Assembly: GCA_964470715.1 (NCBI GenBank)
Contig: CAYYDZ010000002.1
Location: 591 to 64,590, forward strand
From: an uncultured Microthrixaceae bacterium
Lineage (GTDB): Bacteria > Actinomycetota > Acidimicrobiia > Acidimicrobiales > DATDAH01
Length of the DNA: 64,000 nucleotides
Direction: 5' to 3'
The notes under the pieces were generated by a model, which ran no database searches, was not told the origin of the DNA, and was given only the letters and a program-made list of their open reading frames with translations. The translations under genes were made by a program, and so were the position numbers. This document shows, piece after piece, positions 24,647-54,968 of this stretch. Numbering within the stretch: the stretch's first letter is position 1; each line of letters opens with the position of its first letter.

Positions 24647-25555
24647 TCAGACGACGCCGAGCGCCGGATCACCCTCGGGGATGGGCGTCACGTCCACCGA
24701 GACGGCGAGCTCGTGTGACTCGCTCTCGGTGAAGATCACCCCCTTCAGCGGAGGAACGTCGCTGTAGTCGCGACCCCAGGCCACGGTGACGTAGCGGTCG
24801 TCGACGAACTGGTCGTTGGTGGGGTCGAGGTCGATCCAGCCAGGGCCGGGCACGAACACACCCACCCACGCGTGTGAGACGTCGGCGCCCTGGAGCCGCT
24901 CCATGCCCTGAGGGGGCTCGGTCTCGAGGTAGCCGCTGACGTAGCGGGCGGAGAGGCCGAGCGCACGCAGACCCGTGATGGTGAGGTGGGCGAAGTCCTG
25001 GCAGACGCCGGCGCCGCGGGTGAGCAGCTCATCGACCGTGGTGTCGACGTCGGTGGACCCCGGCTGGTACTCGAAGTCGGCGCCGATGCGAGCGGTGAGA
25101 TCGGCCAGAGCCTCGAGGAGGGGCCGGCCAGGAGAGAAGGACTCGGCCACGTAGTCGGCCGCCCGGGGGGAAGGGCCGGCCGCTGGGGAGGGCAAGGTGA
25201 ACTGCCGGGCGTCGAGCACCTCGGGGTCGGTGGAGGTCCGCAGGTCGGCGCGGACGGTCTCCCACAGGTGGCCACCGGCCGACGGCAGGAGCATCTGACG
25301 GCCCCTCACGTCGACCACGCTGGTGGCGGTCACCACGAGCGCCGTGTGCGGTTCGAGCACGGCGTAGTGGGCGACCCGGTTGCCGAAGAAGTCCTTCCGG
25401 ACCCGGTACTCCTCGGGGAAGGGGTCCACGGACAACGTGGTCGAGTAGCACCGCTGACCGGTCAGCTCGCGCGGGTGCAGGCGCGCCTCTCCGTAGGTCG
25501 AGAAGACCTCGCGGTCATAGCGGTACTCCGTGCGGTGCACGACCTTGAAGGTCAC
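24647..25555 (-). CDS. Transglutaminase-like cysteine protease-fold protein (Bact_transglu_N plus transglutaminase core)
   Basis: C-terminal 302 codons of ORF 24647..27397. I place the start at the GTG at 25555..25553, overlapping the upstream TGA (GTGA). VTFKVVHRTEYRYDREV is the typical N-terminus. The catalytic-type core is GAGVCQDFAHL ... SHAWVGVF ... WIDLDPTN (Cys-His-Asp). Confidence 0.8.
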   Translation of the reverse strand: MTFKVVHRTEYRYDREVFSTYGEARLHPRELTGQRCYSTTLSVDPFPEEYRVRKDFFGNRVAHYAVLEPHTALVVTATSVVDVRGRQMLLPSAGGHLWETVRADLRTSTDPEVLDARQFTLPSPAAGPSPRAADYVAESFSPGRPLLEALADLTARIGADFEYQPGSTDVDTTVDELLTRGAGVCQDFAHLTITGLRALGLSARYVSGYLETEPPQGMERLQGADVSHAWVGVFVPGPGWIDLDPTNDQFVDDRYVTVAWGRDYSDVPPLKGVIFTESESHELAVSVDVTPIPEGDPALGVV

Positions 25556-28104
25556 ATCACGCGGGGGTTGTTGGGGGTGAACACGGTGCGCTGGGGCATC
25601 TGGTGGCTGAAGTGCTCCGCGTCGAGGGCATCCGCAGCCCGTATCAACAGCTCGTCGAGGCGTCCGAGGAAGGCGTTCAGCGCGGGCCGCCCACCGTCGG
25701 CGTGGATGGCGCCCAACTCGAAGGTGTCGGCGCGCCGCACCAGGTCGGCGGCCTCCTCTGCGAGCGCCTCGGCGGGGGAGTCGGCGCCCCCGAGGCGGCG
25801 AGGCAGGCCGACCGTGGCCTCGTGCAGCGCGGCCGTCTGGTGGGCCAGCGATCGGGGGTTGTCGAGGTCGAGCACGAGGAGGTCGAGCACGGTGTCGACC
25901 TGCGCACGGGACCGGTACCGGCGCCGGTAGGTGATGATGCTCTCGGCGGCGATGAGGGTGGACTCGAGTACGAGGCTGTCGGTGGCCGTCCCCGTGGCCT
26001 CGGTGACGGTCGCTCGGAGCAGGGCGCTCAGCAGCAGCGATCGCTCGATGCGTCGTCCGGCCTCCAGGAAGCGCCACCCGGCGTCGCGCACCGTGTTCTC
26101 GGCAGCGAGGCCCGAGAGCGCGAGGAGCGCCTGGAGCACCCGGCCGAGCGCCGTCGGATCGGGTCCGCTCGATGACCGCAGTCGCAGGTCGTCCAGGTCG
26201 CGGTCGAGGTGGCCCACCACCAGCCACGTGTCGCTGCTCAGCAGGTCGCGCACCTCGGCGGTGGCATCGAGCATGTGGCGCACGTCGAACGCCAGCGAAC
26301 CGGCTCGGTCCTCGTCGACCAGCACCGAGCGGAGTTCGGCGTCCGGCCAGGCAAGGGCATCGTCGGCGTGCTCGCCCACGAACCCCGGCCACGTGCCGGA
26401 GACCGCCGTGAGGGCTCGCAACAGGATGCGCACGCTGGTGACGCCCTCGGGTGTGGCCCCGGCGGCGAACTCGTTGCGCCGATCGGCGATGACGCGCAGC
26501 AGCCGTGCCAGCATCTCGGCACGCTCGGCGTAGCGGCTCATCCAGAACAGGTGCTCCGCCGCCCGGGGCGAGGTCGGCGGCCGCGGCGCGGGTTCGGCGT
26601 CGTCGTCCTCGGCGGTGGGTTGCAGCCAGAACCCGGTGAGTCGCTCCGGCTCGGCGGCGAGAACGCACGTGTCCTTGCTGAGGGCGCCGGTCTGGTTGGT
26701 GATGAGGTCGCCGTCGGCGTCGGGGGCCACCCGGCTGAGTCCCCCGGGCATCACCGCGTACTGGTCGCCCCGTGCCACCGCGAAGGTGCGCAGGATGGTG
26801 CGGCGCGGGGCGAGGCCGCCATCGGCCACGGTGGGTGTGGTGCCGATGCTCACGGGGCGCTGGCCGACCCAGGCGTGGGGTTGGGCTTCGAGGCGTCGTG
26901 CCAGTTCGTCCCGCTCGGCGGCGCTCAGGCGCCAACCCATCGAAGGGACCATCATGCTCTCCCGGGCGATCGGCTTGATCACCAATTCGTGCAGGTGCGC
27001 GAGCACGTGGGCCCGGGCGGTGGGGTCGCCGCACCACCAGGTGTCGGCCGAGGGAAGTGCCAGTGGCTCGTCGAGGAGCGCCTCGGCCAGCGAGGGCAGG
27101 AACGGGAGCAGGCCCGGGTTCTCGAGGACCCCGCTGCCCAGGGTGTTCACCACCGAGACCGTGCCCGTCCGGCAGGCCTCGAGCAGGCCTGGGACGCCGA
27201 GGTTGGAGTCGGGGCGGAGCTCGACCGGGTCGCAGAACGCCGCGTCGACGCGACGGACGATGACGTGGACCGGCTCGAGCCGCCCGATCGAGCGCATCCA
27301 CACCCTGCCGTCGCGGACGCGAAGGTCGGCGCCTTGGACGAGGGGCACGCCGAGCTGCGCGGCGAGGTAGCCGTGTTCGAAGGCGGTCTCGCTCCACTGC
27401 CCAGGGGTGAGCACGACGATGCGCGGCGTGTCGTCCGTGGGTGGCGCGATCTGGTGCAGCGAGGAGCGCAGGGACCGGAAGAAGGGGGCCAAGCGCTGCA
27501 CCTGGGCCGATCGGTGCAGGCCCGGCAGCACCCGCGAGATCACGACCCGGTTCTCCAGCGCGTACCCGACGCCGGAGGGGGCCTGGGTGCGGTCCGAGAG
27601 CACCACGTGGCGACCGTCGGCGTCGCGGGCCAGATCAGCGGCGGCCAGGAAGAGCTGGTGGGGGCCGGGGAGGCGGATCTGGTCACACGTGCGGAGGAAG
27701 CCGGGGTGCCCGTAGACGACCTCGGGCGGCAGGAGGCCCTCATCGATCAGGCGGCGCTCGCCGTAGAGGTCGTGAAGCACGCGGTCGAGGAGCAGGGCCC
27801 GTTGCGCCACCCCGCTCTCGAGGGTCGCCCACTCCTCGGCGCCCACCATGAGGGGGACGGGGTCCGTGACCCAGGGTCGCGGCCCGACGGCATCGCCGGC
27901 GGTGACGTGGTAGGTGACGCCGTCCTCGGCCAGCAGTCGGGCCGCCTCGGCGGCGCGCAGTGCGAGCTCGCCGTGGTCGCTCAGTGTGGTGGCGACGGTG
28001 GCCCAGTGGTCGCGAACGGAGCCGTCGGGTGCGACCATCTCGTCGACGGCGCCCTCGACCGAGGGATAGGGGGCCAGCAGGGGTGGCCCCGGGACGACGC
28101 TCAC
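25552..28104 (-). CDS. Fusion protein: circularly permuted type-2 ATP-grasp domain plus alpha-E domain
   Basis: Part of ORF 25552..28278. The N-terminal ~480 aa are paralogous to the ATP-grasp at 29209..30645 (LSDRTQAPSGVGYALENR, VVLTPGQWSETAFEHGYLA, VRRVDAAFCDP, SVVNTLGSGVLENPGLL, GGLSRV). The C-terminal part is alpha-E-like (AAEHLFWMSRYAERAE). The start is probably the GTG at 28104. Confidence 0.75.
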   Translation of the reverse strand: MSVVPGPPLLAPYPSVEGAVDEMVAPDGSVRDHWATVATTLSDHGELALRAAEAARLLAEDGVTYHVTAGDAVGPRPWVTDPVPLMVGAEEWATLESGVAQRALLLDRVLHDLYGERRLIDEGLLPPEVVYGHPGFLRTCDQIRLPGPHQLFLAAADLARDADGRHVVLSDRTQAPSGVGYALENRVVISRVLPGLHRSAQVQRLAPFFRSLRSSLHQIAPPTDDTPRIVVLTPGQWSETAFEHGYLAAQLGVPLVQGADLRVRDGRVWMRSIGRLEPVHVIVRRVDAAFCDPVELRPDSNLGVPGLLEACRTGTVSVVNTLGSGVLENPGLLPFLPSLAEALLDEPLALPSADTWWCGDPTARAHVLAHLHELVIKPIARESMMVPSMGWRLSAAERDELARRLEAQPHAWVGQRPVSIGTTPTVADGGLAPRRTILRTFAVARGDQYAVMPGGLSRVAPDADGDLITNQTGALSKDTCVLAAEPERLTGFWLQPTAEDDDAEPAPRPPTSPRAAEHLFWMSRYAERAEMLARLLRVIADRRNEFAAGATPEGVTSVRILLRALTAVSGTWPGFVGEHADDALAWPDAELRSVLVDEDRAGSLAFDVRHMLDATAEVRDLLSSDTWLVVGHLDRDLDDLRLRSSSGPDPTALGRVLQALLALSGLAAENTVRDAGWRFLEAGRRIERSLLLSALLRATVTEATGTATDSLVLESTLIAAESIITYRRRYRSRAQVDTVLDLLVLDLDNPRSLAHQTAALHEATVGLPRRLGGADSPAEALAEEAADLVRRADTFELGAIHADGGRPALNAFLGRLDELLIRAADALDAEHFSHQMPQRTVFTPNNPRVM

Positions 28105-28123
28105 GCCGACGAGTCTGGCGTGA

Positions 28124-29212
28124 TCATCCTGCCCCGGTGAGCGATGGTGCAGGGAGGAAGTAGGTGGCGCCCAGGGCGTCGTGCAGCTCGCCCAGACTCC
28201 GTTGGAGCTCGTCCACCATCTCCAGCAGTTCGTCGGCGCCCCCAGAGATCGGGTCGAACTCGCCGAGGCGGCGGGCAACCGCTGCGCACTCCGCCATGGG
28301 CACCTCCTGGCGGGGGAGCTCGAGCAGCCAACGCGACACGGCGATGAGGCAGTGCTCTACGGACCGGGGGAACGCCGGCTCGAAGAGCAGGAAGCGCACC
28401 GCGTCGGCGCCGTGCACGACGCCGCCGGTGGCGCGTCGGTACATCTGCTCGGCACCGAGCGAGCGCAGCGCCGCCAGCCACGTGACATCGACGAAGGGCC
28501 GCAGGCCTTGGTCGGACACGCCCATGAGGATGTCGGCCTCGACCTCGAGGACGCGGGTGGTCATGTCGGCGCGCTCGACGAAGCGACCGATCTCGAGGAA
28601 CGAGTAGGTGTCGTCCCGGTTCATCGTGGCGTAGATGGAGCCGGCCACGAGGTGGCAGCGGCGGATCACCTCCTCGCACCATGCCAATCGTGTGGGACGG
28701 GCGATGGCGCTGCGCCGCGTGTCCCGGACCCAGAGGTGCAGCTCGTTCAAGGTCTCCCAGGTGCGACGGGGGACCATCGTGCGCGTCACCCGCAGGTCCT
28801 CGCGTGCCTGGTCCACCGAGCTGACCACCGACCCGGGGTTGAGGGGATCGGACAAGAGAAACGAGACCACCTCCTCTTCGGCCGGGTGGTCGTGGGCGAG
28901 GTGGTAGTCGGCGTCGCTGCCGGTGACGGCCAGCAGCGGGGCCCACGTCAGACCTGCGGACTTCGGCAGGTCCACGAACAGCTCGGTGTGGGTCTTGACC
29001 AGACGGGCCGTGGCCTCGGCGCGCTCGAGGTAGCGACCCACCCAGTAGGCGTTCTCGGCCACCCGGGACAACAACATGCTGGGTACCTCCTCCAGGTCCG
29101 GCGCCTCGGCCGGGTCGGCGGTGTCGGTGTCGGTGTCGGTGTCGGTATCTGTGGCGGTGGCGGGCTCGGCGCGTCGACGGTCGCCGCCCCCGTCCGGTGA
29201 GGGCGAGGTCAT
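28124..29212 (-). CDS. Alpha-E domain protein
   Basis: Part of ORF 28124..29641. The ATG at 29212 overlaps the upstream stop (ATGA) and adds a 45-aa acidic extension with a (TD)5 tract. The family-typical N-terminus MLLSRVAENAYWVGRYLERAE starts at the ATG at 29077, which has GGAGGAGG 8 nt upstream. Either start is possible. Confidence 0.75.
   Translation of the reverse strand: MTSPSPDGGGDRRRAEPATATDTDTDTDTDTADPAEAPDLEEVPSMLLSRVAENAYWVGRYLERAEATARLVKTHTELFVDLPKSAGLTWAPLLAVTGSDADYHLAHDHPAEEEVVSFLLSDPLNPGSVVSSVDQAREDLRVTRTMVPRRTWETLNELHLWVRDTRRSAIARPTRLAWCEEVIRRCHLVAGSIYATMNRDDTYSFLEIGRFVERADMTTRVLEVEADILMGVSDQGLRPFVDVTWLAALRSLGAEQMYRRATGGVVHGADAVRFLLFEPAFPRSVEHCLIAVSRWLLELPRQEVPMAECAAVARRLGEFDPISGGADELLEMVDELQRSLGELHDALGATYFLPAPSLTGAG
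29115..29150. repeat. Hexanucleotide tandem repeat (GTGTCG)x4 with degenerate flanking units
   Basis: Positions 29121..29144 are four perfect GTGTCG units, flanked by ggcggt and gtatct variants. On the minus strand they encode TDTDTDTDTD, in frame if the alpha-E gene starts at 29212. Confidence 0.85.
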
Positions 29213-30645
29213 CGTTCGCGCACCTCGATGCTCAGCCCGGACCTGGGTGGTCGCAGGACATCGGGGTCGATGATCCAAGTGTCCTTGCTGCCGCCGCCCT
29301 GGGAGCTGTTCACGATCAGCGAACCTTCCTGGCGGGCGACGCGGGTCAGCCCTCCGGTGGTGACGTAGGGGTGCTCCCCCGAGAGCACGAACGGCCGCAG
29401 GTCGACGTGGCGTGGGGCCACGACGCCGTCGCACAGCGTCGGCGCGGTGGAGAGCCGCAGGATGGGCTGAGCCACATAGTTGCGGGGGTCGGCCTCGACG
29501 CGGCGGCGGATCTCCTCCTTGTCGGCGGCGCTGGCGTGCGAACCGACGAAGATGCCGTAGCCCCCTGACTCGTTGGCCGGCTTCACGACGAGGTGGTCGA
29601 GGTTGGCCAGGACGTGCTTGCGCTGGCGGTCGTCCAGGCACACGAAGGTCTCGACGTTGGGGACGAGCGGTTCCTCGCCCAGGTAGTAGTGGATGAGGGC
29701 AGGGACGTAGGCGTAGAGGACCTTGTCGTCGGCCACTCCCGCACCGGGCGCGTTGGCGATGGCCACGTTGCCCTGGCGCCAGGCCGCCATGAGGCCAGCC
29801 ACGCCGAGGGCAGAGTCGGGGCGGAACACCTCGGGGTCGAGGAACAGGTCGTCGACCCGGCGGTACACGACATCGACGCGCACCAGGCCACCGACGGTGC
29901 GCAGGTAGACGACGTCGTCATCGACCACCAGGTCGCGCCCTTCGACGAGGTGGGCGCCCATCTGCTGGGCCAGGAACGCGTGCTCGAAGTACGCGGAATT
30001 GTGCACCCCGGGGGTCAGGACCACGATCACCGGCACCTCGCCGGGGCGGGGCGACAGGGAGCCGAGCAGTTCCCGTAGGCGGGTCGGGTACGCGTCGACG
30101 GGGTGGATGTCGAGGTCGCGGAAGAGATCGGCGAACACCCGTTTGGTTATCTGGCGGTTCTCGAGCATGTACGAGACGCCCGACGGCACTCGCAGGTTGT
30201 CCTCGAGCACGTACATGGTCCCGTCGCCGTCACGGACGAGGTCGCTTCCGGAGATGTGGGCCCAGGTGCCCTGCGGCGGACGTGCGCCGCGGCATTGGAG
30301 CCGCAGGTTGGCCGACTCGCCCACGACCTCAGCGGGCACGACGCCGTTGCGGATGGCCCGCCCTTCGCCGTAGATGTCGTCGATGAAGAGGTTCAGCGCG
30401 ACCATGCGTTGCGTGAGCCCCGCCGAGATCCGGCTCCACTCGTGGGTGGACAGCACCCGGGGGATGACGTCGAAGGGCCAGGCCCGGTCGATGTTGGTGC
30501 CTTCGGAGTACACGGTGAACGAGATGCCCATGGCCCGGATGGCCAGCTCGGCGGCGGCCTGGCGTTCCCGCAGGTCGGCGCCGAGCGAGTGGAGGAGGTC
30601 GACGACTCCCTCGCAGGCTGGTCGGGGCCCGTCGGTGGCGAACAT
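29209..30645 (-). CDS. Circularly permuted type-2 ATP-grasp protein
   Basis: ORF 29209..30645. Motifs: MGISFTVYSE, LEDNLRVPSGVSYMLENR, VVLTPGVHNSAYFEHAFLAQQMG, YRRVDDLFLDPE, NAPGAGVADDK, GGLTRV. A coding-like open frame continues ~31 codons upstream of the ATG with no ATG/GTG/TTG, so the true start may be further upstream (see findings). Confidence 0.8.
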   Translation of the reverse strand: MFATDGPRPACEGVVDLLHSLGADLRERQAAAELAIRAMGISFTVYSEGTNIDRAWPFDVIPRVLSTHEWSRISAGLTQRMVALNLFIDDIYGEGRAIRNGVVPAEVVGESANLRLQCRGARPPQGTWAHISGSDLVRDGDGTMYVLEDNLRVPSGVSYMLENRQITKRVFADLFRDLDIHPVDAYPTRLRELLGSLSPRPGEVPVIVVLTPGVHNSAYFEHAFLAQQMGAHLVEGRDLVVDDDVVYLRTVGGLVRVDVVYRRVDDLFLDPEVFRPDSALGVAGLMAAWRQGNVAIANAPGAGVADDKVLYAYVPALIHYYLGEEPLVPNVETFVCLDDRQRKHVLANLDHLVVKPANESGGYGIFVGSHASAADKEEIRRRVEADPRNYVAQPILRLSTAPTLCDGVVAPRHVDLRPFVLSGEHPYVTTGGLTRVARQEGSLIVNSSQGGGSKDTWIIDPDVLRPPRSGLSIEVRER

Positions 30646-30872
30646 CTCGTCCCACGCCGTGCCGGGGTCGTAGGCGCGCCAGGGGTCGTCCGCATCGTCG
30701 GGCGGGGTCGGCTTGGTGGCGGTGGGAGCGGCAGCGATGGGACGAGGGTGTCGCCCGAAGGTGACGGGGGTGTTTCGGGTCCGTGAAATGCCTTCCCCCG
30801 GGCCGGGTGACGCGTCCTCGCCTCGCTCGTGTCCCGGTGGTTACCGTGGCGGCGATCGAGCCGCGACGAACC

Positions 30873-30877
30873 AGGAG
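30873..30877 (+). promoter_or_regulatory. Shine-Dalgarno (AGGAG) for the 24-codon micro-ORF
   Basis: The sequence reads ccAGGAGcttgtgATG, with a 6-nt spacer to the ATG at 30884. Confidence 0.5.
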
Positions 30878-30883
30878 CTTGTG

Positions 30884-30958
30884 ATGCCCGTCGACACCTT
30901 CTTCGCCTTCTTCGCGGCCGACGCCGAGGCGATCGAGCAGGACGCGTCCGCGGCGTGA
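30884..30958 (+). CDS. Micro-ORF (24 aa: MPVDTFFAFFAADAEAIEQDASAA), translationally coupled to the amidase
   Basis: ATG at 30884 with AGGAG 6 nt upstream. All 23 sense codons after the ATG end in G or C. By contrast, 18 of the 57 upstream codons of the longer track ORF 30713..30958 end in A/T. The TGA at 30956..30958 overlaps the amidase GTG at 30955 (GTGA). Confidence 0.45.
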   Translation: MPVDTFFAFFAADAEAIEQDASAA

Positions 30959-32409
30959 CCACGACGGACGCCGGCGCGTCGGCGGGCATCCGCAGGTCGC
31001 ACGCCTACGGCGACGAGCTCGCCGGCTTCGACGGCGTCGCCACCGCCCAGGCCGTGCGGTCGGGTGCGTTGTCCGCGTCCGAGGTGGTGCGGGCCGCCAT
31101 CGCACGAGCGCGTGCCGTCGAGCCCGCCGTGCACGCGATGGTCGTCGACGACTTCGATCGGGCCCAGGCGGCCGGCGATGCGGGCCGGACGGGCGCGTTT
31201 GCCGGCGTCCCCACCGTCATCAAGGACATGACCGATGTGGCCGGACTGCCCACCCGAAACGGATCAGCCGCCTTCTCGAGGGCGGGACCGGCCGAGGAGA
31301 CCGGCGCCCTCGCTGCCCAGCTCTTCGACATGGGAATGGTCGGGCTGGGCAAGAGCACCATGCCCGAGTTCGGCTTCATCCCGTGCGCGGAGTTCCCCGA
31401 CCTGGAGGCCACGCGCAACCCCTGGAACCTGAACCGCTCCACCGGTGGCTCGTCCGGTGGCTCGGCTGCACTCGTCGCGGCGGGTGTGGTGCCCATCGCC
31501 CACGGCGCCGACGGGGGTGGGTCGATCCGCATCCCTGCGGCCTGCTGTGGCCTGGTCGGCCTCAAGGCCACCCGGGGGCGCTTGGCGAAGCCACCCGAGT
31601 CTCGCCTGATGCCTGTGGACGTCGAGGTCGAGGGAGTCCTGAGTCGCACGGTTCGGGACACGGCGCTGTTCTTCGCCGAGGCCGAGAGACGTCACCGCAG
31701 TCGCCGTCTCCCACCCGTCGGTCACGTCACGCGGCCGTTGGTGCGGCGGCTCCGCGTCGGCACGGTCCTCGAATCGCCCAACGGTGCCCTGGTCGACGCC
31801 CCGACGCGGGCGGCCTTCGAGCGAGCGGTGACACTGCTCGAGTCGTTGGGCCACGAGGTGCGGCCGGTCGACTTCCCCGCCGGTCGACAGTTCGCCGACG
31901 ACTTCATCCAGTACTGGTCGACGCTGGCCTACGCGGTGAGCGTGCAGGGCCACCGCCTGTTCGACCCGACCTTCGACCGTTCGCAGCTCACCCAGCTCAC
32001 GCGGGGCCTGGCCGAACGGTGCCGTCGCAACCTGGCGCGGACCCCTGGAGCGGTCTACCGGTTGCGGCGCTCCGCCGCGGACTACGCGAAGGCCATCGCC
32101 GGTGTCGACGTCGTCCTGTCGCCGGTGGTGAACACGATCGCTCCCGAGATCGGCCACTTGGCCATGGACCTGCCTTTCGACGAGGTGTTCCCCCGTGCGG
32201 AGGCCTGGGTCGGGTACACCCCGCTGGCCAACGCCACCGGCGCCCCGGCCATCAGCCTCCCGCTGCACCACGACGAGGCCAGCGGCCTGCCCGTGGGGAT
32301 GATGTTCAGCGCCGCCCATGGCCAGGACGCCCTGTTGTTGGGTCTGGCCTTGGCCCTCGAGGAGGCCGCGCCCTGGCCGACCCTTGGCGGGTCCCTCGCG
32401 CCGAGGTGA
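30955..32409 (+). CDS. Amidase-signature (GatA-like) amidase
   Basis: Part of ORF 30829..32409. The GTG at 30955 is the only canonical start just upstream of the family-typical N-terminus (ATAQAVRSGALSASEVVRAAIARA). The amidase signature is GGSSGGSAALVAAGVVPIAHGADGGGSIRIPAACCGLVGLKATRGR. Confidence 0.85.
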   Translation: MTTTDAGASAGIRRSHAYGDELAGFDGVATAQAVRSGALSASEVVRAAIARARAVEPAVHAMVVDDFDRAQAAGDAGRTGAFAGVPTVIKDMTDVAGLPTRNGSAAFSRAGPAEETGALAAQLFDMGMVGLGKSTMPEFGFIPCAEFPDLEATRNPWNLNRSTGGSSGGSAALVAAGVVPIAHGADGGGSIRIPAACCGLVGLKATRGRLAKPPESRLMPVDVEVEGVLSRTVRDTALFFAEAERRHRSRRLPPVGHVTRPLVRRLRVGTVLESPNGALVDAPTRAAFERAVTLLESLGHEVRPVDFPAGRQFADDFIQYWSTLAYAVSVQGHRLFDPTFDRSQLTQLTRGLAERCRRNLARTPGAVYRLRRSAADYAKAIAGVDVVLSPVVNTIAPEIGHLAMDLPFDEVFPRAEAWVGYTPLANATGAPAISLPLHHDEASGLPVGMMFSAAHGQDALLLGLALALEEAAPWPTLGGSLAPR

Positions 32410-32451
32410 GGTCGCCCGCTCGAGCCGGGGGACTCCCGGTACCGTCTTCGC

Positions 32452-33129
32452 ATGGCTGAGACCACGGGCCCGCTCATCAGCGTGCGGGGCGAGGCAGCCG
32501 CTGAGGTCGAACCCGAGTTGGCGCACGTCGTCGTCACGGTCGTGGCGCGGGACCGAGATCGCGACCGGGTGCTGCGCGATCTGGACGAGCGCGCCCGTAG
32601 CGTCGATGCCCTGCTCGACCGGTTCTCCACGGCCATCGAACGGGTCGACACCGAGGCCGTCCGCGTGGCGCCGCAGTTCGCCACCAACAAACCCAGGGAG
32701 AAGGTGGCCGGCTATGAGGCGTCCGTGCGCCGTACCGTGGTGCTCCACGAGTTCTCGCCGCTGGGGGATCTTCTCGCCCAACTGGCGGTGATCGATCTGG
32801 CCGCCGTGACCGGCCCGACGTGGACGTTGCGGCCCGCGAGCGAGGTGACACGGGACGTCCGGGTGGCTGCGGTCCGAGATGCGGTGCACCGTGCCCAGGA
32901 GTACGCCGAAGCGCTGGGCTGCTCGCTGACCGAGCTCGTCGACCTTGCCGACGTCGGGCTGATGACCTCACCGGAGGCGAGGGCCATGGCAGTGAGCGGC
33001 GTGGCGGCAACGGCCTTTCGTGGCGCACCGGCGCCCGAGACGTTCTCCTTCGACGTCACCCCGACGCGCCAAGTCGTCGAGGCCAGCGTCGAAGCTCGGT
33101 TCCGTGCCACCCCGCCCGATCTGAGTTGA
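32452..33129 (+). CDS. SIMPL-domain (DUF541) protein
   Basis: ORF 32452..33129. LISVRGEAAAEVEPELAHVVVTV ... AVRDAVHRAQEYAEALG is typical of the SIMPL / 26-kDa periplasmic immunogenic protein family. No obvious signal peptide. Confidence 0.65.
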   Translation: MAETTGPLISVRGEAAAEVEPELAHVVVTVVARDRDRDRVLRDLDERARSVDALLDRFSTAIERVDTEAVRVAPQFATNKPREKVAGYEASVRRTVVLHEFSPLGDLLAQLAVIDLAAVTGPTWTLRPASEVTRDVRVAAVRDAVHRAQEYAEALGCSLTELVDLADVGLMTSPEARAMAVSGVAATAFRGAPAPETFSFDVTPTRQVVEASVEARFRATPPDLS

Positions 33130-49847: not shown

Positions 49848-51086
49848 TCAGCCTCGGCCGACGACGAAGGTGGCCACGGTGGTGAGGCTGCCCCCCAAGT
49901 TAAGGGTCGCGACCCGCCGTGCACCCTCGACCTGGCCGTCGCCCGCGCTCCCGGTGACCTGGCGGGAGGCGTCCCAGAGCATGCGCACCCCCGTGGCGCC
50001 CACGGGGTGGCCGGCCGCCAGCAGGCCGCCTGAGGGGTTCACGGGGAGTTCGCCGCCGAGCTCGGTGCGCCCGTCCTCGATGGCCTTCCAGCTCTCGCCG
50101 GGAGCGGTGAGCCCGAGGTGGTCGAGGGCCGCGTATTCGCTGATGGTGAAGCAGTCGTGGGTCTCCACGGCGTCGAGCTCGTCGACCGACGCCAGGCCGG
50201 CCCGCGAGAAGGCGTCGAGGGCGGCGGCCCGCAGCTGCGGGAACACGTACGGCTCGCCGTGGCTGGCCGCGAACTTGTCGGCCATGGTCATGCGGGCCGT
50301 GCGGTGGCCCCAGCCCTCGATGCGGGCCACGTCGGCGAGGTCGACGCCGCGCGCCGTGGCCCAGGCCTCGGCGTAACGCGGGGTGGCCAGGACGACCGCG
50401 GCGGCGCCGTCGGTGACCTGCGAGCAGTCCGAGCGGCGGAGGCGGCCGGCGACCACGGGGTTGGTCTCGTCGTCGGCGGCGAAGGTGGCGTCGCCCACGG
50501 CCCACGTGCGGGTCTGGGCGAGGGGGTTGCCTTTGGCGTTGGTGAACGCCTTGCGGGCGATTGCCGCGAGGTGCACGTCGTCCAGGCCGTAGCGGCGGTC
50601 GTACTCGTCGGCCACGTCGCTGAACAGCTTCGGCCACGGGTACTCGAGGCCGACGACCTCGTCGTGCGCCCGTCCGGCGGCGCTGAGGGCGGCTTGGGCG
50701 GCGAAGCCGCCATCGGCCCGCATCAGCTCGACGCCCACGACGAGGGCGACGTCGGCCCGTCCCGCCGCCAGGTCGGCGGTGGCGGCGAGCACGGCCATGC
50801 TCCCGGAGGCGCAGGCCGCCTCGTGGCGGCTGATGGCGATGCCCTCGAGCTCGGGCACGGCGTCGACGAGCAGGCCGCCCAGGTGACCTTGGCCGGAGTA
50901 GATCTCGGCGGCGAAGTTGCCGACGTGGGCGACGCCGACCTCGGAGGCATCCAGTCGGGCAGCGGCGAGGGCGCCCCGGGCGGCTTCGCCAAGGAGGTCG
51001 GTGAGGCCGAGGCCCTCGCGCGTGGCGTTGCGGGCGAAGTCGCTCTGATGGCCCCCGAGGACGTACGGGGTCGGCTCGTCGCTCAC
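49848..51086 (-). CDS. Thiolase-fold protein (SCP-x / non-specific lipid-transfer-type thiolase)
   Basis: C-terminal 412 codons of ORF 49848..51839. The GTG at 51086 overlaps the upstream TGA (GTGA). Motifs: RHEAACASGSMAV (active-site Cys), ETHDCFT, NPSGGLLAAGHPVGATG. Confidence 0.8.
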   Translation of the reverse strand: MSDEPTPYVLGGHQSDFARNATREGLGLTDLLGEAARGALAAARLDASEVGVAHVGNFAAEIYSGQGHLGGLLVDAVPELEGIAISRHEAACASGSMAVLAATADLAAGRADVALVVGVELMRADGGFAAQAALSAAGRAHDEVVGLEYPWPKLFSDVADEYDRRYGLDDVHLAAIARKAFTNAKGNPLAQTRTWAVGDATFAADDETNPVVAGRLRRSDCSQVTDGAAAVVLATPRYAEAWATARGVDLADVARIEGWGHRTARMTMADKFAASHGEPYVFPQLRAAALDAFSRAGLASVDELDAVETHDCFTISEYAALDHLGLTAPGESWKAIEDGRTELGGELPVNPSGGLLAAGHPVGATGVRMLWDASRQVTGSAGDGQVEGARRVATLNLGGSLTTVATFVVGRG

Positions 51087-52537
51087 GGCGCCTGCTGGCC
51101 GGCGAGCTCGTCGGCCCCCACCCACCAGGAGTGGTAGCCCGCCGGCACCCGGCCGGGGACCGCCAGGCGGCACACCGGCCCGTCCTCGAGGCGCTCGGCG
51201 TCCAGGACGTGCACCTCCGACGCGCCGGTCGTCTCCTCGACCACGAAGGTGACCAGGTAGCCGGCGGCCTCGTCGGTGGCCCCCGCCTTCGGGCAGAACG
51301 ACGTCTCGCCGCCGAACCAGCCCTCGGGCCACGCGTGGGTGACCGTCTCGCCAGTGGCGCGGTCGTGGCGGATCACCCCGTCGAAGGCGAGGGCGGAGCG
51401 GTCGGCGAAGCGCATCAGGTACGAGTACCGGAACTCGCGGCCGAAGCGGCGCACGTCGATCTTCGGGAACTCGGCGATGTGGTCGTCGATGCGGCGCTTG
51501 GTGATGGCCCCGGTGGCCAGGTGGAACGTCCACTCGGTGAGGTACGGCTCCAGGCGCAGCATCGCGATCTGCGGGGCGTCGATGAGGTCGGGGGCGTTGC
51601 CCGGGTCCGACGCCAGCGGGTCGGCGATCTCGCAGCCGACCAGGCGCACCACGGCGTTGCCGTCGTCGTCGGCCTCTTCCCAGGCGTTGCACACGTGGTA
51701 CATGAAGCACGGGTCCGTCTCGAACCAGCGCACGTCGGCCGTGGGCGCGGTGGTGTCGCTGTCTCGGCCGACGAGTCCGAAGCGCGACGGGCGGTGGCGG
51801 TGGAAGGCGAGGCGGCTGCGGCCGTCCTGCTGCTCCCACATGAAGGGGAAGTCGAACACGACGATCCAGTCGTCGGTGAAGGCCAGGTCGTGCTGGAGAC
51901 GGGGGCCGCCGACCTCCACGGTCTGGCTGCGCACCACCTTCCCCTCGGGGGAGACGACGCCGAGGGTGAGGTACGGCGGCACCGGGTCGTAGTCGATGTA
52001 GAGCAGCTCGCCGGTGCGGGGGTCGACCTTGGGGTGGGCGGCGATGTGGGTCTGGAGCGTCCCGCCGAAGTCCTCACGGCCGAGGGTCTCGAGGTCGGGG
52101 AGCGAGAGGCGGTAGGCCTCGCCGCCGAGCCACCAGAGGGCGAGCAGCTCGCCGTTGAACCACACGAGGTCGGTGTTGGCGGTGTCCTTGAACACGTCCG
52201 GGAACTTCGAGAAGTCGGGCGGCTCGAGGATGCCGGTCCACAGCGCGTGGCCCGCCTCTTCCTCGGCGGCGAGGGCGCGGGTGCGCACGTAGCGGTTGGC
52301 GTAGTGGGCGCCGGCGTCGTCGAAGTGCACGGCGTGGACCATGCCGTCGCCGTCGAACCAGTGGTAGCGGCCCTCGGGCTCGAAGCGCGGGTTGCTCCCG
52401 TTGCGCACGTACGCACCCCGGAGATCGGCGGGAAGCCGGCCCGCGACGACCTCGAGGTCGGCGGAGCGCTCATCGTCGATCGGGGCGAAGATGCCCTCGA
52501 GGTACGGAGAGCGCTGCCCGATGCTGGTCATGGTCAT
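51083..52537 (-). CDS. Carotenoid / lignostilbene cleavage oxygenase (RPE65/CCD family)
   Basis: C-terminal 484 codons of ORF 51083..54175, starting at the ATG at 52537 (MTMTSIGQRSPYLEGIFAPI). Candidate Fe-ligand His residues: HWFDGDGMVH, AAHPKVD, LQHDLAFT, MYHVCNAW, GYHSWW. Confidence 0.85.
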   Translation of the reverse strand: MTMTSIGQRSPYLEGIFAPIDDERSADLEVVAGRLPADLRGAYVRNGSNPRFEPEGRYHWFDGDGMVHAVHFDDAGAHYANRYVRTRALAAEEEAGHALWTGILEPPDFSKFPDVFKDTANTDLVWFNGELLALWWLGGEAYRLSLPDLETLGREDFGGTLQTHIAAHPKVDPRTGELLYIDYDPVPPYLTLGVVSPEGKVVRSQTVEVGGPRLQHDLAFTDDWIVVFDFPFMWEQQDGRSRLAFHRHRPSRFGLVGRDSDTTAPTADVRWFETDPCFMYHVCNAWEEADDDGNAVVRLVGCEIADPLASDPGNAPDLIDAPQIAMLRLEPYLTEWTFHLATGAITKRRIDDHIAEFPKIDVRRFGREFRYSYLMRFADRSALAFDGVIRHDRATGETVTHAWPEGWFGGETSFCPKAGATDEAAGYLVTFVVEETTGASEVHVLDAERLEDGPVCRLAVPGRVPAGYHSWWVGADELAGQQAP

Positions 52538-52618
52538 GCGGGAACCCCCTGGCCCGACGCCCTTCGCCGGCACACGTCCCCATTCTGCCCCACACCGACG
52601 CGTGCCTACGCTGGATCG

Positions 52619-54316
52619 ATGTCCCTGCTCCTGCACCCCGGCCGGTTGGCCCGGCCCTATCCCGACGAGCGCAGCCGCGAGGTGATGGCCAAGACGGTGG
52701 CCTGGTTCGAGGCCCGCGGCAAGGAACGGCTCAAGGCCGACGACCACGCCGCGGTCTGGTACCAGGACTTCCTCGACTTCGTCGCCGCCGAAGGCATCTT
52801 CGCCACGATGTGCACACCCGCCGGCCTGGGTGCCGAGGACAGCCGCTGGGACACCTGGCGCATCTGTGAGTTCGCCGAGATCCTCGGCTTCTACGGCCTG
52901 CAGTACTGGTACACGTGGCAGGTCACGGTGCTCGGCCTCGGTCCGCTGTGGATGTCGAAGAACGAGGCGCTGCGGGAGCGGACCGCCGTCCTGCTCGCCG
53001 ACGGCGGGATCTTCGGCTTCGGCCTCTCGGAGAAGGCCCACGGCGCCGACCTCTACTCGACCGACATGGTGCTCGAGCCCCAGGGCGACGGGACCTACCT
53101 CGCCAACGGCTCGAAGTACTACATCGGCAACGGCAACCAGGCCGCGCTGGTCTCGGTGTTCGGCAAGCTCCCCGACGGCAACCCGGTGGCCTTCGCCGTC
53201 AGCTCGCAGCACCCCAGCTACGAGCTGGTCAAGAACGTGGTGTGGAGCCAGAACTACGTCTCGGAGTTCCGCCTGCACGACTACCCGATCACCGAGGCGG
53301 ACCTCATCGCCGTCGGCGCCGACGCGTGGAACGCCGGCCTCAACACCGTGAACATCGGCAAGTACAACCTGGGGTGGGCGTCGATCGGCATCTGCACCCA
53401 CGCCCTGTACGAGGCGGTGACCCACGCCCACCACCGGGTCCTCTACGGGCACCCCGTCACCGACTTCGCCCACGTGCGCCAGCTGTTCACCGACGCCTAC
53501 TGCCGGCTCGTGGCCATGAAGCTCGTCGCCCTGCGGGCCAGCGACTACTTCCGGTCGGCGTCGCTCGCCGACCGCCGCTACCTGCTGTTCAACCCGGTGG
53601 TGAAGATGAAGGTCACCACCCAGGGCGAGGACGTCATCAACCACCTGTGGGACGTCATCGCGGCCAAGGGCTTCGAGAAGGACATGTACTTCGAGGCTGC
53701 CGCCCGTGACATCCGGGCCCTGCCCAAGCTCGAGGGCACGGTGCACGTGAACATCTCGCTGATCGTGAAGTTCATGCACAACTACTTCTTCGAGCCCGCC
53801 GACGTGCCCGACGTTCCCCAGCGGGCCGACGCCGCCAACGACGACTTCCTGTTCGACCAGGGCCCGACCGGCGGGCTCTCGAAGGTGCGCTTCGGCCCGT
53901 GGCGGCGGCCCTTCGAGGCGAGCGCCCTGCCCAACGTGGCCGTGTTCCGCGAGCAGGCGGACGTGCTGGTCCGCTTCCTCGCCGAGACGCCCCTCGACGA
54001 GGCGCAGGCCCGCGACATCGACGTGCTGCTGGCGGTGGGGGAGATCTTCACCCTCGTGGTGTACGCCCAGCTGGTGCTGGAGAACGCCGCCATCTACGAC
54101 ATCGCCGACGACCTGATCGACCAGACCTTCGACGTGTTCGTGCGGGACCTGTCCCGCTTCGCGGTGCAGCTCCACGGCAAGCCCAGCACCACCCAGGCCC
54201 AGCAGGACCTCTGCCTCGCCATGATCCGCAAGCCCGTGGTCGACCCCGACCGGACCAACCGGGTGTGGGAAGGCGACGTGCTGGCGGTCTCCGGCGCCTA
54301 CGAGATGGCGCCCTGA
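52619..54316 (+). CDS. Acyl-CoA dehydrogenase-family protein (long, ~565 aa form)
   Basis: C-terminal part of ORF 51131..54316, starting at the ATG at 52619. Motifs: GFGLSEKAHGADLYSTDM, YLANGSKYYIGNGN, EGTVHVN. Confidence 0.75.
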   Translation: MSLLLHPGRLARPYPDERSREVMAKTVAWFEARGKERLKADDHAAVWYQDFLDFVAAEGIFATMCTPAGLGAEDSRWDTWRICEFAEILGFYGLQYWYTWQVTVLGLGPLWMSKNEALRERTAVLLADGGIFGFGLSEKAHGADLYSTDMVLEPQGDGTYLANGSKYYIGNGNQAALVSVFGKLPDGNPVAFAVSSQHPSYELVKNVVWSQNYVSEFRLHDYPITEADLIAVGADAWNAGLNTVNIGKYNLGWASIGICTHALYEAVTHAHHRVLYGHPVTDFAHVRQLFTDAYCRLVAMKLVALRASDYFRSASLADRRYLLFNPVVKMKVTTQGEDVINHLWDVIAAKGFEKDMYFEAAARDIRALPKLEGTVHVNISLIVKFMHNYFFEPADVPDVPQRADAANDDFLFDQGPTGGLSKVRFGPWRRPFEASALPNVAVFREQADVLVRFLAETPLDEAQARDIDVLLAVGEIFTLVVYAQLVLENAAIYDIADDLIDQTFDVFVRDLSRFAVQLHGKPSTTQAQQDLCLAMIRKPVVDPDRTNRVWEGDVLAVSGAYEMAP

Positions 54317-54332
54317 CGCCGGCGCCGCCGGC

Positions 54333-54968
54333 TCAGTCCTCGGGGGCGATGGAGGCGAAGGCGCGGGCCTTGTCGAGCGCCGCCATGCGCTCGTCGCTGG
54401 TGGCGGCGCCGACCAGCACGTAGTCGTCGGCGTACTCGGGACGGAGCTCGCCGTCGTCGTCGAGCAGCCAGGCCATGGCGAGGCGGCGGGGGACCCGCAC
54501 CCGGTCGGGGCGCTCGAGGGTGCCGAAGGCCCGGTCCCACCAGGGCACGCTCACGCCGTGGTTGGCCATGGGGTGGCCGAAGTGGTGGTGGAAGTGGTGG
54601 ATCCGCAGCCAGCGGGAGTAGGTGCCCGACGGCCCGCGCAGGTGGGCCTGGGCGTGGCAGTACTCGTAGACGCCGTAGCCGACCGCCCAGCCGAGCGCGA
54701 CCCCGAGGCCCACCGCCGACGAGCCGGTCAGGTACCAGAAGAGGGGCGTCCAGATGAGCCCACCCACGAGGCCGACGCCGATCCAGCTGAGGACGTTCGT
54801 GTAGGCGAGGCGCCAGTCGGCACGCACGTGGTGGAGCAGGTGCTCGCGGCTCATGATCCCCTTGCCGTGCAACTCGTGCATGGCGAAGCGGTGCAGGATG
54901 TACTCGCCGAGGGTCCAGAGCAGCCAGCCGCCGACGAAGGCGACGAGGAGAGCGAGGGGGAGGGGCAC
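54333..54968 (-). CDS. Fatty-acid hydroxylase / sterol desaturase-family membrane di-iron enzyme
   Basis: C-terminal 211 codons of ORF 54333..55430. The GTG at 54968 is preceded by AAGGA. TM segments plus His boxes HRFAMH, HLLHH and HHFHHH. Confidence 0.75.
   Translation of the reverse strand: MPLPLALLVAFVGGWLLWTLGEYILHRFAMHELHGKGIMSREHLLHHVRADWRLAYTNVLSWIGVGLVGGLIWTPLFWYLTGSSAVGLGVALGWAVGYGVYEYCHAQAHLRGPSGTYSRWLRIHHFHHHFGHPMANHGVSVPWWDRAFGTLERPDRVRVPRRLAMAWLLDDDGELRPEYADDYVLVGAATSDERMAALDKARAFASIAPED

Follow-up and report, generated by a model that had tools for sequence, protein, structure and literature searches.

Results

The locus and its genes

The stretch of DNA analysed here, 64 kb in length and referred to below as the window, has a G+C content of 72%. 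On its forward strand it carries a 24-codon micro-ORF whose stop codon overlaps the start of an amidase gene, and on the other side of the micro-ORF lies a divergent operon of circularly permuted (cp) ATP-grasp, Alpha-E and transglutaminase-like genes (Table 1). The amidase matches Pfam family PF01425 with E = 2e-86 and scores 592.7 bits against the NCBIfam model NF005899, for which the cut-off is 418. In the reverse-strand operon, two cp-ATP-grasp/Alpha-E modules stand in tandem (24647-30645), one as separate genes and the other fused, a duplication somewhat unusual for this type of operon. The distance between the start of the micro-ORF and that of the nearest ATP-grasp gene is 238 nt, as the initial annotation had it.

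Table 1 Features of the micro-ORF locus, in window coordinates
Feature	Position (strand)	Remarks
Transglutaminase-like gene	24647-25549 (-)	Bact_transglu_N + Transglut_core
cp-ATP-grasp/Alpha-E fusion	25552-28278 (-)	908-aa protein
Alpha-E gene	end near 28124 (-)	
cp-ATP-grasp gene	29209-30645 (-)	478 aa; called from ATG 30645 in public assemblies
Conserved GGTTACCGTG motif	30839-30848 (+)	about 35 nt upstream of the micro-ORF start codon; TACCGT is a candidate actinobacterial -10 element (TANNNT)
Shine-Dalgarno sequence AGGAG	30873-30877 (+)	from the former DUF1269 gene; aligned with GGGAG/AGGAG preceding the full-length gene in two relatives, L007 and L008
Micro-ORF	30884-30958 (+)	24 codons, ATG to TGA; product MPVDTFFAFFAADAEAIEQDASAA, then stop
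5' remnant of DUF1269 gene	30884-30916 (+)	codons 1-11 (MPVDTFFAFFA)
Deletion junction	30916/30917 (+)	450 nt (150 codons) of the ancestral gene absent; placed by base-by-base comparison
3' remnant of DUF1269 gene	30917-30958 (+)	last 13 codons (ADAEAIEQDASAA) + TGA
Amidase gene	30955-32409 (+)	PF01425; NCBIfam NF005899; GTG start overlaps the relic TGA (30956-30958) as GTGA

An AGGAG lying 6 nt ahead of the ATG at 30884, and the peptide encoded from there, had been read correctly from the letters. The duplex of this AGGAG with the anti-Shine-Dalgarno (anti-SD) sequence amounts to -6.6 kcal/mol, and its spacer to the ATG measures about 5-6 nt. The codon counts also proved accurate: G or C occupies the third position in all 23 sense codons past the ATG, and 18 of the 57 codons upstream in the same frame end in A or T. 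Such a run of G/C third positions (GC3) is weak evidence when taken alone, since off-phase runs of 23 or more period-3 G/C positions number about 12 within 41 kb of coding sequence; what distinguishes the site is that the run is combined with an SD, an ATG and a stop that overlaps the next start. Elsewhere in the window, very long G/C third-position runs are found at 51086-54759 (251 at 52945-53695, 151 at 53818-54268 and several of 50-107 between 51086 and 52412); they fall outside our rough gene list and look like genes with near-100% GC3.

The GTG at 30955 had been proposed as the amidase start, with the TGA of the micro-ORF overlapping it as GTGA, and both proposals hold. GC3 in the amidase frame is about 1.0 from 30955 on and 0.33-0.5 just upstream, an N-terminal alignment of 7 homologues agrees with this start, and public gene calls likewise begin there (484 aa). 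The micro-ORF and the amidase are therefore co-directional ORFs with a 4-nt stop/start overlap, and the SD is well placed on the upstream ORF and badly placed on the downstream start, both of which are characteristic of coupled gene pairs. The SD-like motif of the amidase itself, AGGA at 30939-30942, gives -4.2 kcal/mol with a 12-nt spacer.

Farther upstream, the GGTTACCGTG motif is the sole block kept in all six aligned loci, in which the amidase stands behind a DUF1269 gene, behind the micro-ORF or alone (see below). In the form GGTTAC(C/G)GTG it is common to all loci compared, about 35 nt upstream, as a candidate -10 region, and its conservation suggests a role as promoter. A consensus scan of the locus for promoters and terminators, which uses an E. 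coli-type consensus, returned no promoter match.

The micro-ORF joins the two ends of a DUF1269 gene

When the amidase was searched at the protein level, close relatives came up in metagenome assemblies only, the closest being L007 (89% identity) and L008/L009 (83%). The amidases closest to that of the window, P0002 (89%) and P0003 (83%), are each preceded by a 174-aa PF06897 (DUF1269) gene that ends in a GTGA overlap. The product of this gene matches PF06897 above the gathering score over residues 68-161; it begins MPIDTFFAFFATYDD, also given as MPIDTFFAFFATYDDVEDAK, and ends KQVEADAEAIERDATES followed by the stop. The peptide of the window, MPVDTFFAFFA joined to ADAEAIEQDASAA, corresponds to residues 1-11 plus the last 13 residues of that protein. 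At the N-terminus it agrees with L008 in 10 of 11 residues, and at the C-terminus both have the motif ADAEAIE.DA.

The same picture emerges at the nucleotide level. In blastn comparisons, window 30871-30927, with the ribosome-binding site (RBS) and the 5' end of the gene, aligns with L007 2893-2948 (84% over 57 nt), and window 30916-31100, from the 3' end of the gene into the amidase, aligns with L007 3387-3571 (83% over 185 nt); the two alignments abut in the window at 30916/30917. The DUF1269 gene measures 525 nt in both L007 and L008 and the relic measures 75 nt, a difference of exactly 450 nt and thus an in-frame loss of 150 codons. In the relatives the breakpoints fall at an imperfect repeat, ACCTACGACGACGT versus GCCGA(C/T)GCCGAGGC, with 8-9 of 14 bases equal; ACCTACGACGACGT opens the segment that was deleted and GCCGACGCCGAGGC opens the 3' segment that was retained. 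This repeat is compatible with an origin of the deletion by illegitimate recombination or slippage.

More than 7000 DUF1269 homologues were found, nearly all of 173-176 aa, and the best 120 of these are 75-96% identical; those with a name come from Acidimicrobiales, Acidimicrobiia or Microthrixaceae MAGs. The existence of so many homologues of about 174 aa means that the full-length form is ancestral. The hallmarks of the family, an N-terminal M[PA][IV]DTFFAF and a C-terminal AD..(A/E)IE.DA, recur throughout these homologues and match the two ends of the relic. The description of the peptide as having an aromatic N-terminal and an acidic C-terminal half thus stands, but as marks of a special peptide these halves fail, both being conserved termini of the DUF1269 family. 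The relic retains only residues 1-11 and 162-174; the DUF1269 domain (68-161, a Gly-rich membrane region) is gone, and with it any function as a PF06897 member. A tblastn search of the 64-kb window revealed no second DUF1269 copy.

Judged from these alignments, the micro-ORF is by descent a remnant of a PF06897 gene, the two ends of which were joined by the deletion, and the idea of a dedicated short peptide gene has to be abandoned. RBS, codon bias and stop/start overlap are inherited and are no sign of a new peptide gene. The coding signal is real nonetheless, because the DNA descends from coding sequence, and the genuine coding signature, RBS and start noted initially are borne out by this derivation from a full-length gene.

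Two other sources of the codon bias were considered and rejected. A minus-strand ORF (30841-31134) has the same third-codon positions, but its phase is unbiased past 30958, where the amidase frame replaces it; an antisense origin is rejected also because homology to DUF1269 accounts for the signal. A longer ORF in the same frame, from a TTG at 30713 to 30958, is a spurious extension, its upstream part being devoid of codon bias and of homology to the relatives. Some public assemblies call the relic as a 73-aa or 51-aa ORF (L047:783-1004, L049:584-805, L038:3-158), and these entries are probably spurious.

One deletion allele in a widely sampled species

At 90% identity the amidase falls into a cluster of 31 proteins; apart from P0001, the 14 members listed reach at least 99% identity to P0001. 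Exact-protein look-ups of three amidase variants led to 22 further contigs, which differ in sample, assembler and archive (ENA, Logan and NCBI). All 22 have an identical deletion junction, and in each of them 309 nt separate the ATP-grasp gene from the amidase. The window is apparently metagenomic, and an identical amidase comes only from metagenome-type sources, which could raise the suspicion of a collapsed or mis-joined DUF1269 gene produced in assembly or sequencing. Recurrence of an identical junction and spacing in 22 independently assembled contigs makes the chance of such an artefact next to negligible, and instead means that the deletion is fixed in a widely sampled species.

Variation among these alleles was compared between the micro-ORF and the amidase in 22 full-length alleles (the window and 21 loci). 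Polymorphic sites in the micro-ORF comprise 3 non-synonymous changes (P2S, F7C and E23A) and 0 synonymous ones, as against 5 non-synonymous and 17 synonymous in the amidase (Fisher exact p = 0.024, a test that rests on three micro-ORF sites and on loci retrieved by exact amidase protein sequence, so that non-synonymous amidase variants are under-sampled). The Ala23 of the window is a singleton, and all other alleles have Glu, the ancestral residue. The comparison of synonymous and amino-acid conservation that had been suggested as a check therefore goes against a functional peptide: in this small sample all three polymorphisms change residues, with no purifying selection seen, and the peptide sequence appears unconstrained. 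The pattern agrees with a peptide for which the exact sequence has become unimportant.

This test has no power on the maintenance of the ORF as such. The ORF is intact in all 23 alleles, with 3 mutations in 75 nt, which is compatible with selective maintenance and equally with too little time for decay.

The ATP-grasp neighbourhood is specific to one lineage

In L007 and L008, a divergent ABC-transporter operon (binding protein and permeases) lies upstream of the DUF1269 gene and a PLD-like gene lies downstream, between the amidase and a SIMPL gene; the window has no counterpart of the PLD-like gene there. A tblastn search of the 64-kb window found neither the ABC-transporter genes nor the PLD-like gene of the relatives. 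The amidase and SIMPL genes are the only ones syntenic between the window and these two loci. Differences at window positions 30646-30835 and 32410-32451 point to a rearrangement that brought the amidase-SIMPL block beside the ATP-grasp locus in this lineage. Since the intact-gene relatives have the ABC transporter upstream and the window does not, the ATP-grasp adjacency is recent, and it is seen solely in the one species that has the deletion. It probably reflects a separate lineage-specific rearrangement of no functional meaning.

These results bear on the proposal that the peptide is a precursor or substrate, ligated or trimmed by the cp-ATP-grasp, Alpha-E and transglutaminase enzymes or by the amidase. 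Its appeal lies in the divergent ATP-grasp operon 238 nt away and in the acidic C-terminal half, which might in principle supply carboxylates. However, the sequence consists of fused DUF1269 gene ends, the relatives with an intact gene lack an adjoining ATP-grasp locus, and the three residue changes found in the population include one in the aromatic motif (F7C) and one in the acidic tail (E23A). A search with the degenerate junction pattern FFAFFAADAE gave no match in JGI metagenome contigs. The neighbouring enzymes are PF14403/PF04174 cp-ATP-grasp proteins, which we take not to be of the ATP-grasp type known from ribosomal-peptide maturation. The proposal thus fails both on co-occurrence with the ATP-grasp locus and on sequence constraint, and we regard it as extremely improbable.

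The surroundings of the amidase change with distance. At 70-73% amidase identity (L010-L015 and L018), the relatives have the same ABC-transporter neighbour and no upstream ORF, and amidases of at most 65% identity are found in unrelated contexts. The search for a similarly placed short ORF in relatives thus came out negative, the orthologues having either the full 174-aa gene or no upstream ORF. The beginning of the amidase in L018 (620-660), GTG GAC ACC GTG ACG, resembles the V-D-T codons of DUF1269 fused straight to the amidase GTG AC. The relatives that lack DUF1269 (L018:620-660, L010:3270-3300) may represent a second, more complete and independent deletion rather than primary absence. 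Scanning genome contigs with the amidase yielded distant amidases only (26-32% identity and one 59% fragment), with no useful synteny.

Elsewhere in Acidimicrobiales the DUF1269 gene stands alone. In L024 (3001-5078), and also in L025-L027, from other Acidimicrobiales MAGs, a DUF1269 gene is followed by a convergent gene for a 511-aa amidase, which in L024 is 44% identical to the amidase of the window over 184 aa. This recurring DUF1269-amidase neighbourhood in a different orientation may be coincidental or may reflect a link in function.

Translation of the relic and of the amidase

The initial annotation also offered a regulatory leader peptide for the amidase. One form of it would be an attenuator of the pheL kind that senses Phe, in which ribosomes stall on FFAFF and thereby control the amidase. 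Four Phe codons within five positions near the start, and an ORF directly upstream of and overlapping the gene to be regulated, would suit such a role, and the micro-ORF bears a superficial resemblance to pheL (a sequence of 15 residues). However, thousands of full-length DUF1269 proteins have a conserved FFAF at the N-terminus, which implies that the Phe run was not selected for sensing. One population allele has Cys in place of Phe, and the relatives at 70-73% identity have the same amidase without an upstream ORF. A terminator scan of the locus found no terminator-like hairpin, an Rfam search gave a best E of 0.45 with all matches far below gathering scores, and the RNA folding energy is no better than that of shuffled sequence (z = 0.38). 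With neither RNA features of this kind nor conservation of the ORF upstream of orthologues, a regulatory leader is very unlikely.

The reading of the GTGA as a translational-coupling arrangement fares better, in that the same junction joins a full-length gene to the amidase in the relatives. The overlap at 30955-30958 is identical in the window, L007 and L008, and in these three loci, whether the relic or the full DUF1269 gene precedes it, the GTG of the amidase has only a weak SD (-4.2 to -5.9 kcal/mol) with a spacer of 11-12 nt. In the relatives without an upstream gene the amidase lies 4-6 nt behind a good SD (-6.6 to -8.6 kcal/mol), homologous to that of the relic.

It is conceivable that the relic, translated or not, contributes nothing, and that the amidase initiates independently from its own weak AGGA. 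In the window and L007 the amidase GTG is indeed preceded by an AGGA or AAGGA, the contribution of the SD to reinitiation differs widely among genes (Huber et al. 2019, PMC6728339), and no unusual RNA structure hides the amidase start, as the folding z-score indicates. The spacer of 11-12 nt, on the other hand, is outside the usual optimum, the duplex reaches only -4.2 kcal/mol in the window and L008, and the motif decays to GGGA in L008 while the GTGA overlap stays in all three loci. The position of the amidase directly behind a strong SD in the relatives that lack DUF1269 suggests that the amidase needs that SD either way. We therefore consider an inert relic unlikely.

Discussion

Our preferred reading, to which we assign a probability of roughly 85%, is that the micro-ORF is a pseudogene relic of a 450-nt in-frame deletion that is most likely still translated and delivers ribosomes to the amidase, with a functionless peptide as the by-product. 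The ancestor, probably a bacterium of the Acidimicrobiia, had a two-gene unit composed of the 174-aa DUF1269 membrane-protein gene and the amidase, joined by the GTGA overlap. One deletion, possibly between the imperfect short repeats, then took out codons 12-161 with the whole DUF1269 domain, leaving the promoter, the SD, the start codon, 11 N-terminal and 13 C-terminal codons and the stop/start overlap. Because the initiation signals and the reading frame all survive, the relic is most likely still translated. Ribosomes that terminate on it would reinitiate at the amidase GTG, so that the relic would serve as a short ribosome-delivery ORF only and its 24-aa product would be functionless. Translation of the relic and its coupling to the amidase are suggested by the geometry of the junction. 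For pairs with a 4-nt overlap, strict coupling by termination-reinitiation was observed in 13 of 14 pairs tested experimentally (PMC6728339). For actinobacteria and mycobacteria, short ORFs have been proposed that have no other role than to supply a coupled gene with ribosomes (review PMC12548453, citing Shell et al. 2015).

Whether selection has kept the relic is a separate matter. If the amidase depends on coupling to DUF1269 and lacks an adequate SD, only a deletion that preserves the start, the frame and the GTGA spares amidase expression. Of the other two deletion frames, one runs ribosomes out of frame through the amidase to a first stop at 32457 and the other gives an N-terminal fusion to the amidase. 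With a 1-in-3 chance of being in frame and a tolerable fusion in a second frame, the preserved frame is weak evidence for selection. That selection maintains the relic as a minimal ORF for the delivery of ribosomes to a coupling-dependent amidase is a tentative idea, possible but doubtful. If true, a deletion would here have created a natural counterpart of the synthetic "bicistronic design" element, and this counterpart would be fixed in a soil actinobacterial species of wide distribution.

The case is one of ordinary gene decay that has left a textbook-looking micro-ORF, which works like a short coupled upstream ORF. It carries a caution for high-G+C genomes, where a perfect RBS, codon bias and a coupled stop/start may together be the fused ends of a deleted gene, and pipelines for small-ORF discovery should check for such ends before a new peptide is proposed. 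The locus is also a clean natural example of an operon that has lost its first gene yet retains the translational entry point for the second. The deletion allele is fixed in a species represented in dozens of metagenomes, and the locus offers a possible test case for the dependence of a downstream gene on termination-reinitiation.

Comparison with known systems

A first comparison is with the DUF1269 (PF06897) genes of Acidimicrobiia, which encode a 174-aa "uncharacterized membrane protein". The relic is homologous to them at both gene ends and has the same RBS, the same position before the same amidase and the same GTGA overlap, but lacks 150 of 174 codons, including everything that matches the Pfam domain. 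With the coupled overlapping pairs (ATGA/GTGA, -4 overlap) studied by Huber et al. (2019, PMC6728339) it shares the 4-nt overlap, the good upstream SD and the poor downstream SD; it differs in that the upstream partner has 24 codons and probably encodes nothing useful, and in that coupling is here predicted from the sequence.

Among leader ORFs, pheL of E. coli, an amino-acid-sensing leader, is likewise a short Phe-rich ORF ahead of an enzyme gene; the relic lacks an attenuator structure, its Phe residues are inherited from a membrane-protein N-terminus, and the short ORF is not conserved in relatives. The precursors of graspetides, which are modified by ATP-grasp ligases, are similar in being short ORFs near ATP-grasp genes. 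At the present locus, however, the ATP-grasp is of the circularly permuted COG2308 type, accompanied by Alpha-E and transglutaminase, the adjacency is confined to one lineage and the peptide appears to be under no constraint.

In function the relic resembles the ribosome-delivering short upstream ORFs (uORFs) described in the review cited above (PMC12548453): a short ORF in a high-G+C, actinobacterial-type genome whose only plausible role is the hand-over of ribosomes at -4. According to the same review, citing Supply et al. (1997), mycobacterial MIRU elements insert an ORF that is coupled at -4 nt. Compared with these elements and with dedicated uORFs, the relic was born by internal deletion of a resident gene instead of mobile insertion, and was apparently not selected as a uORF.
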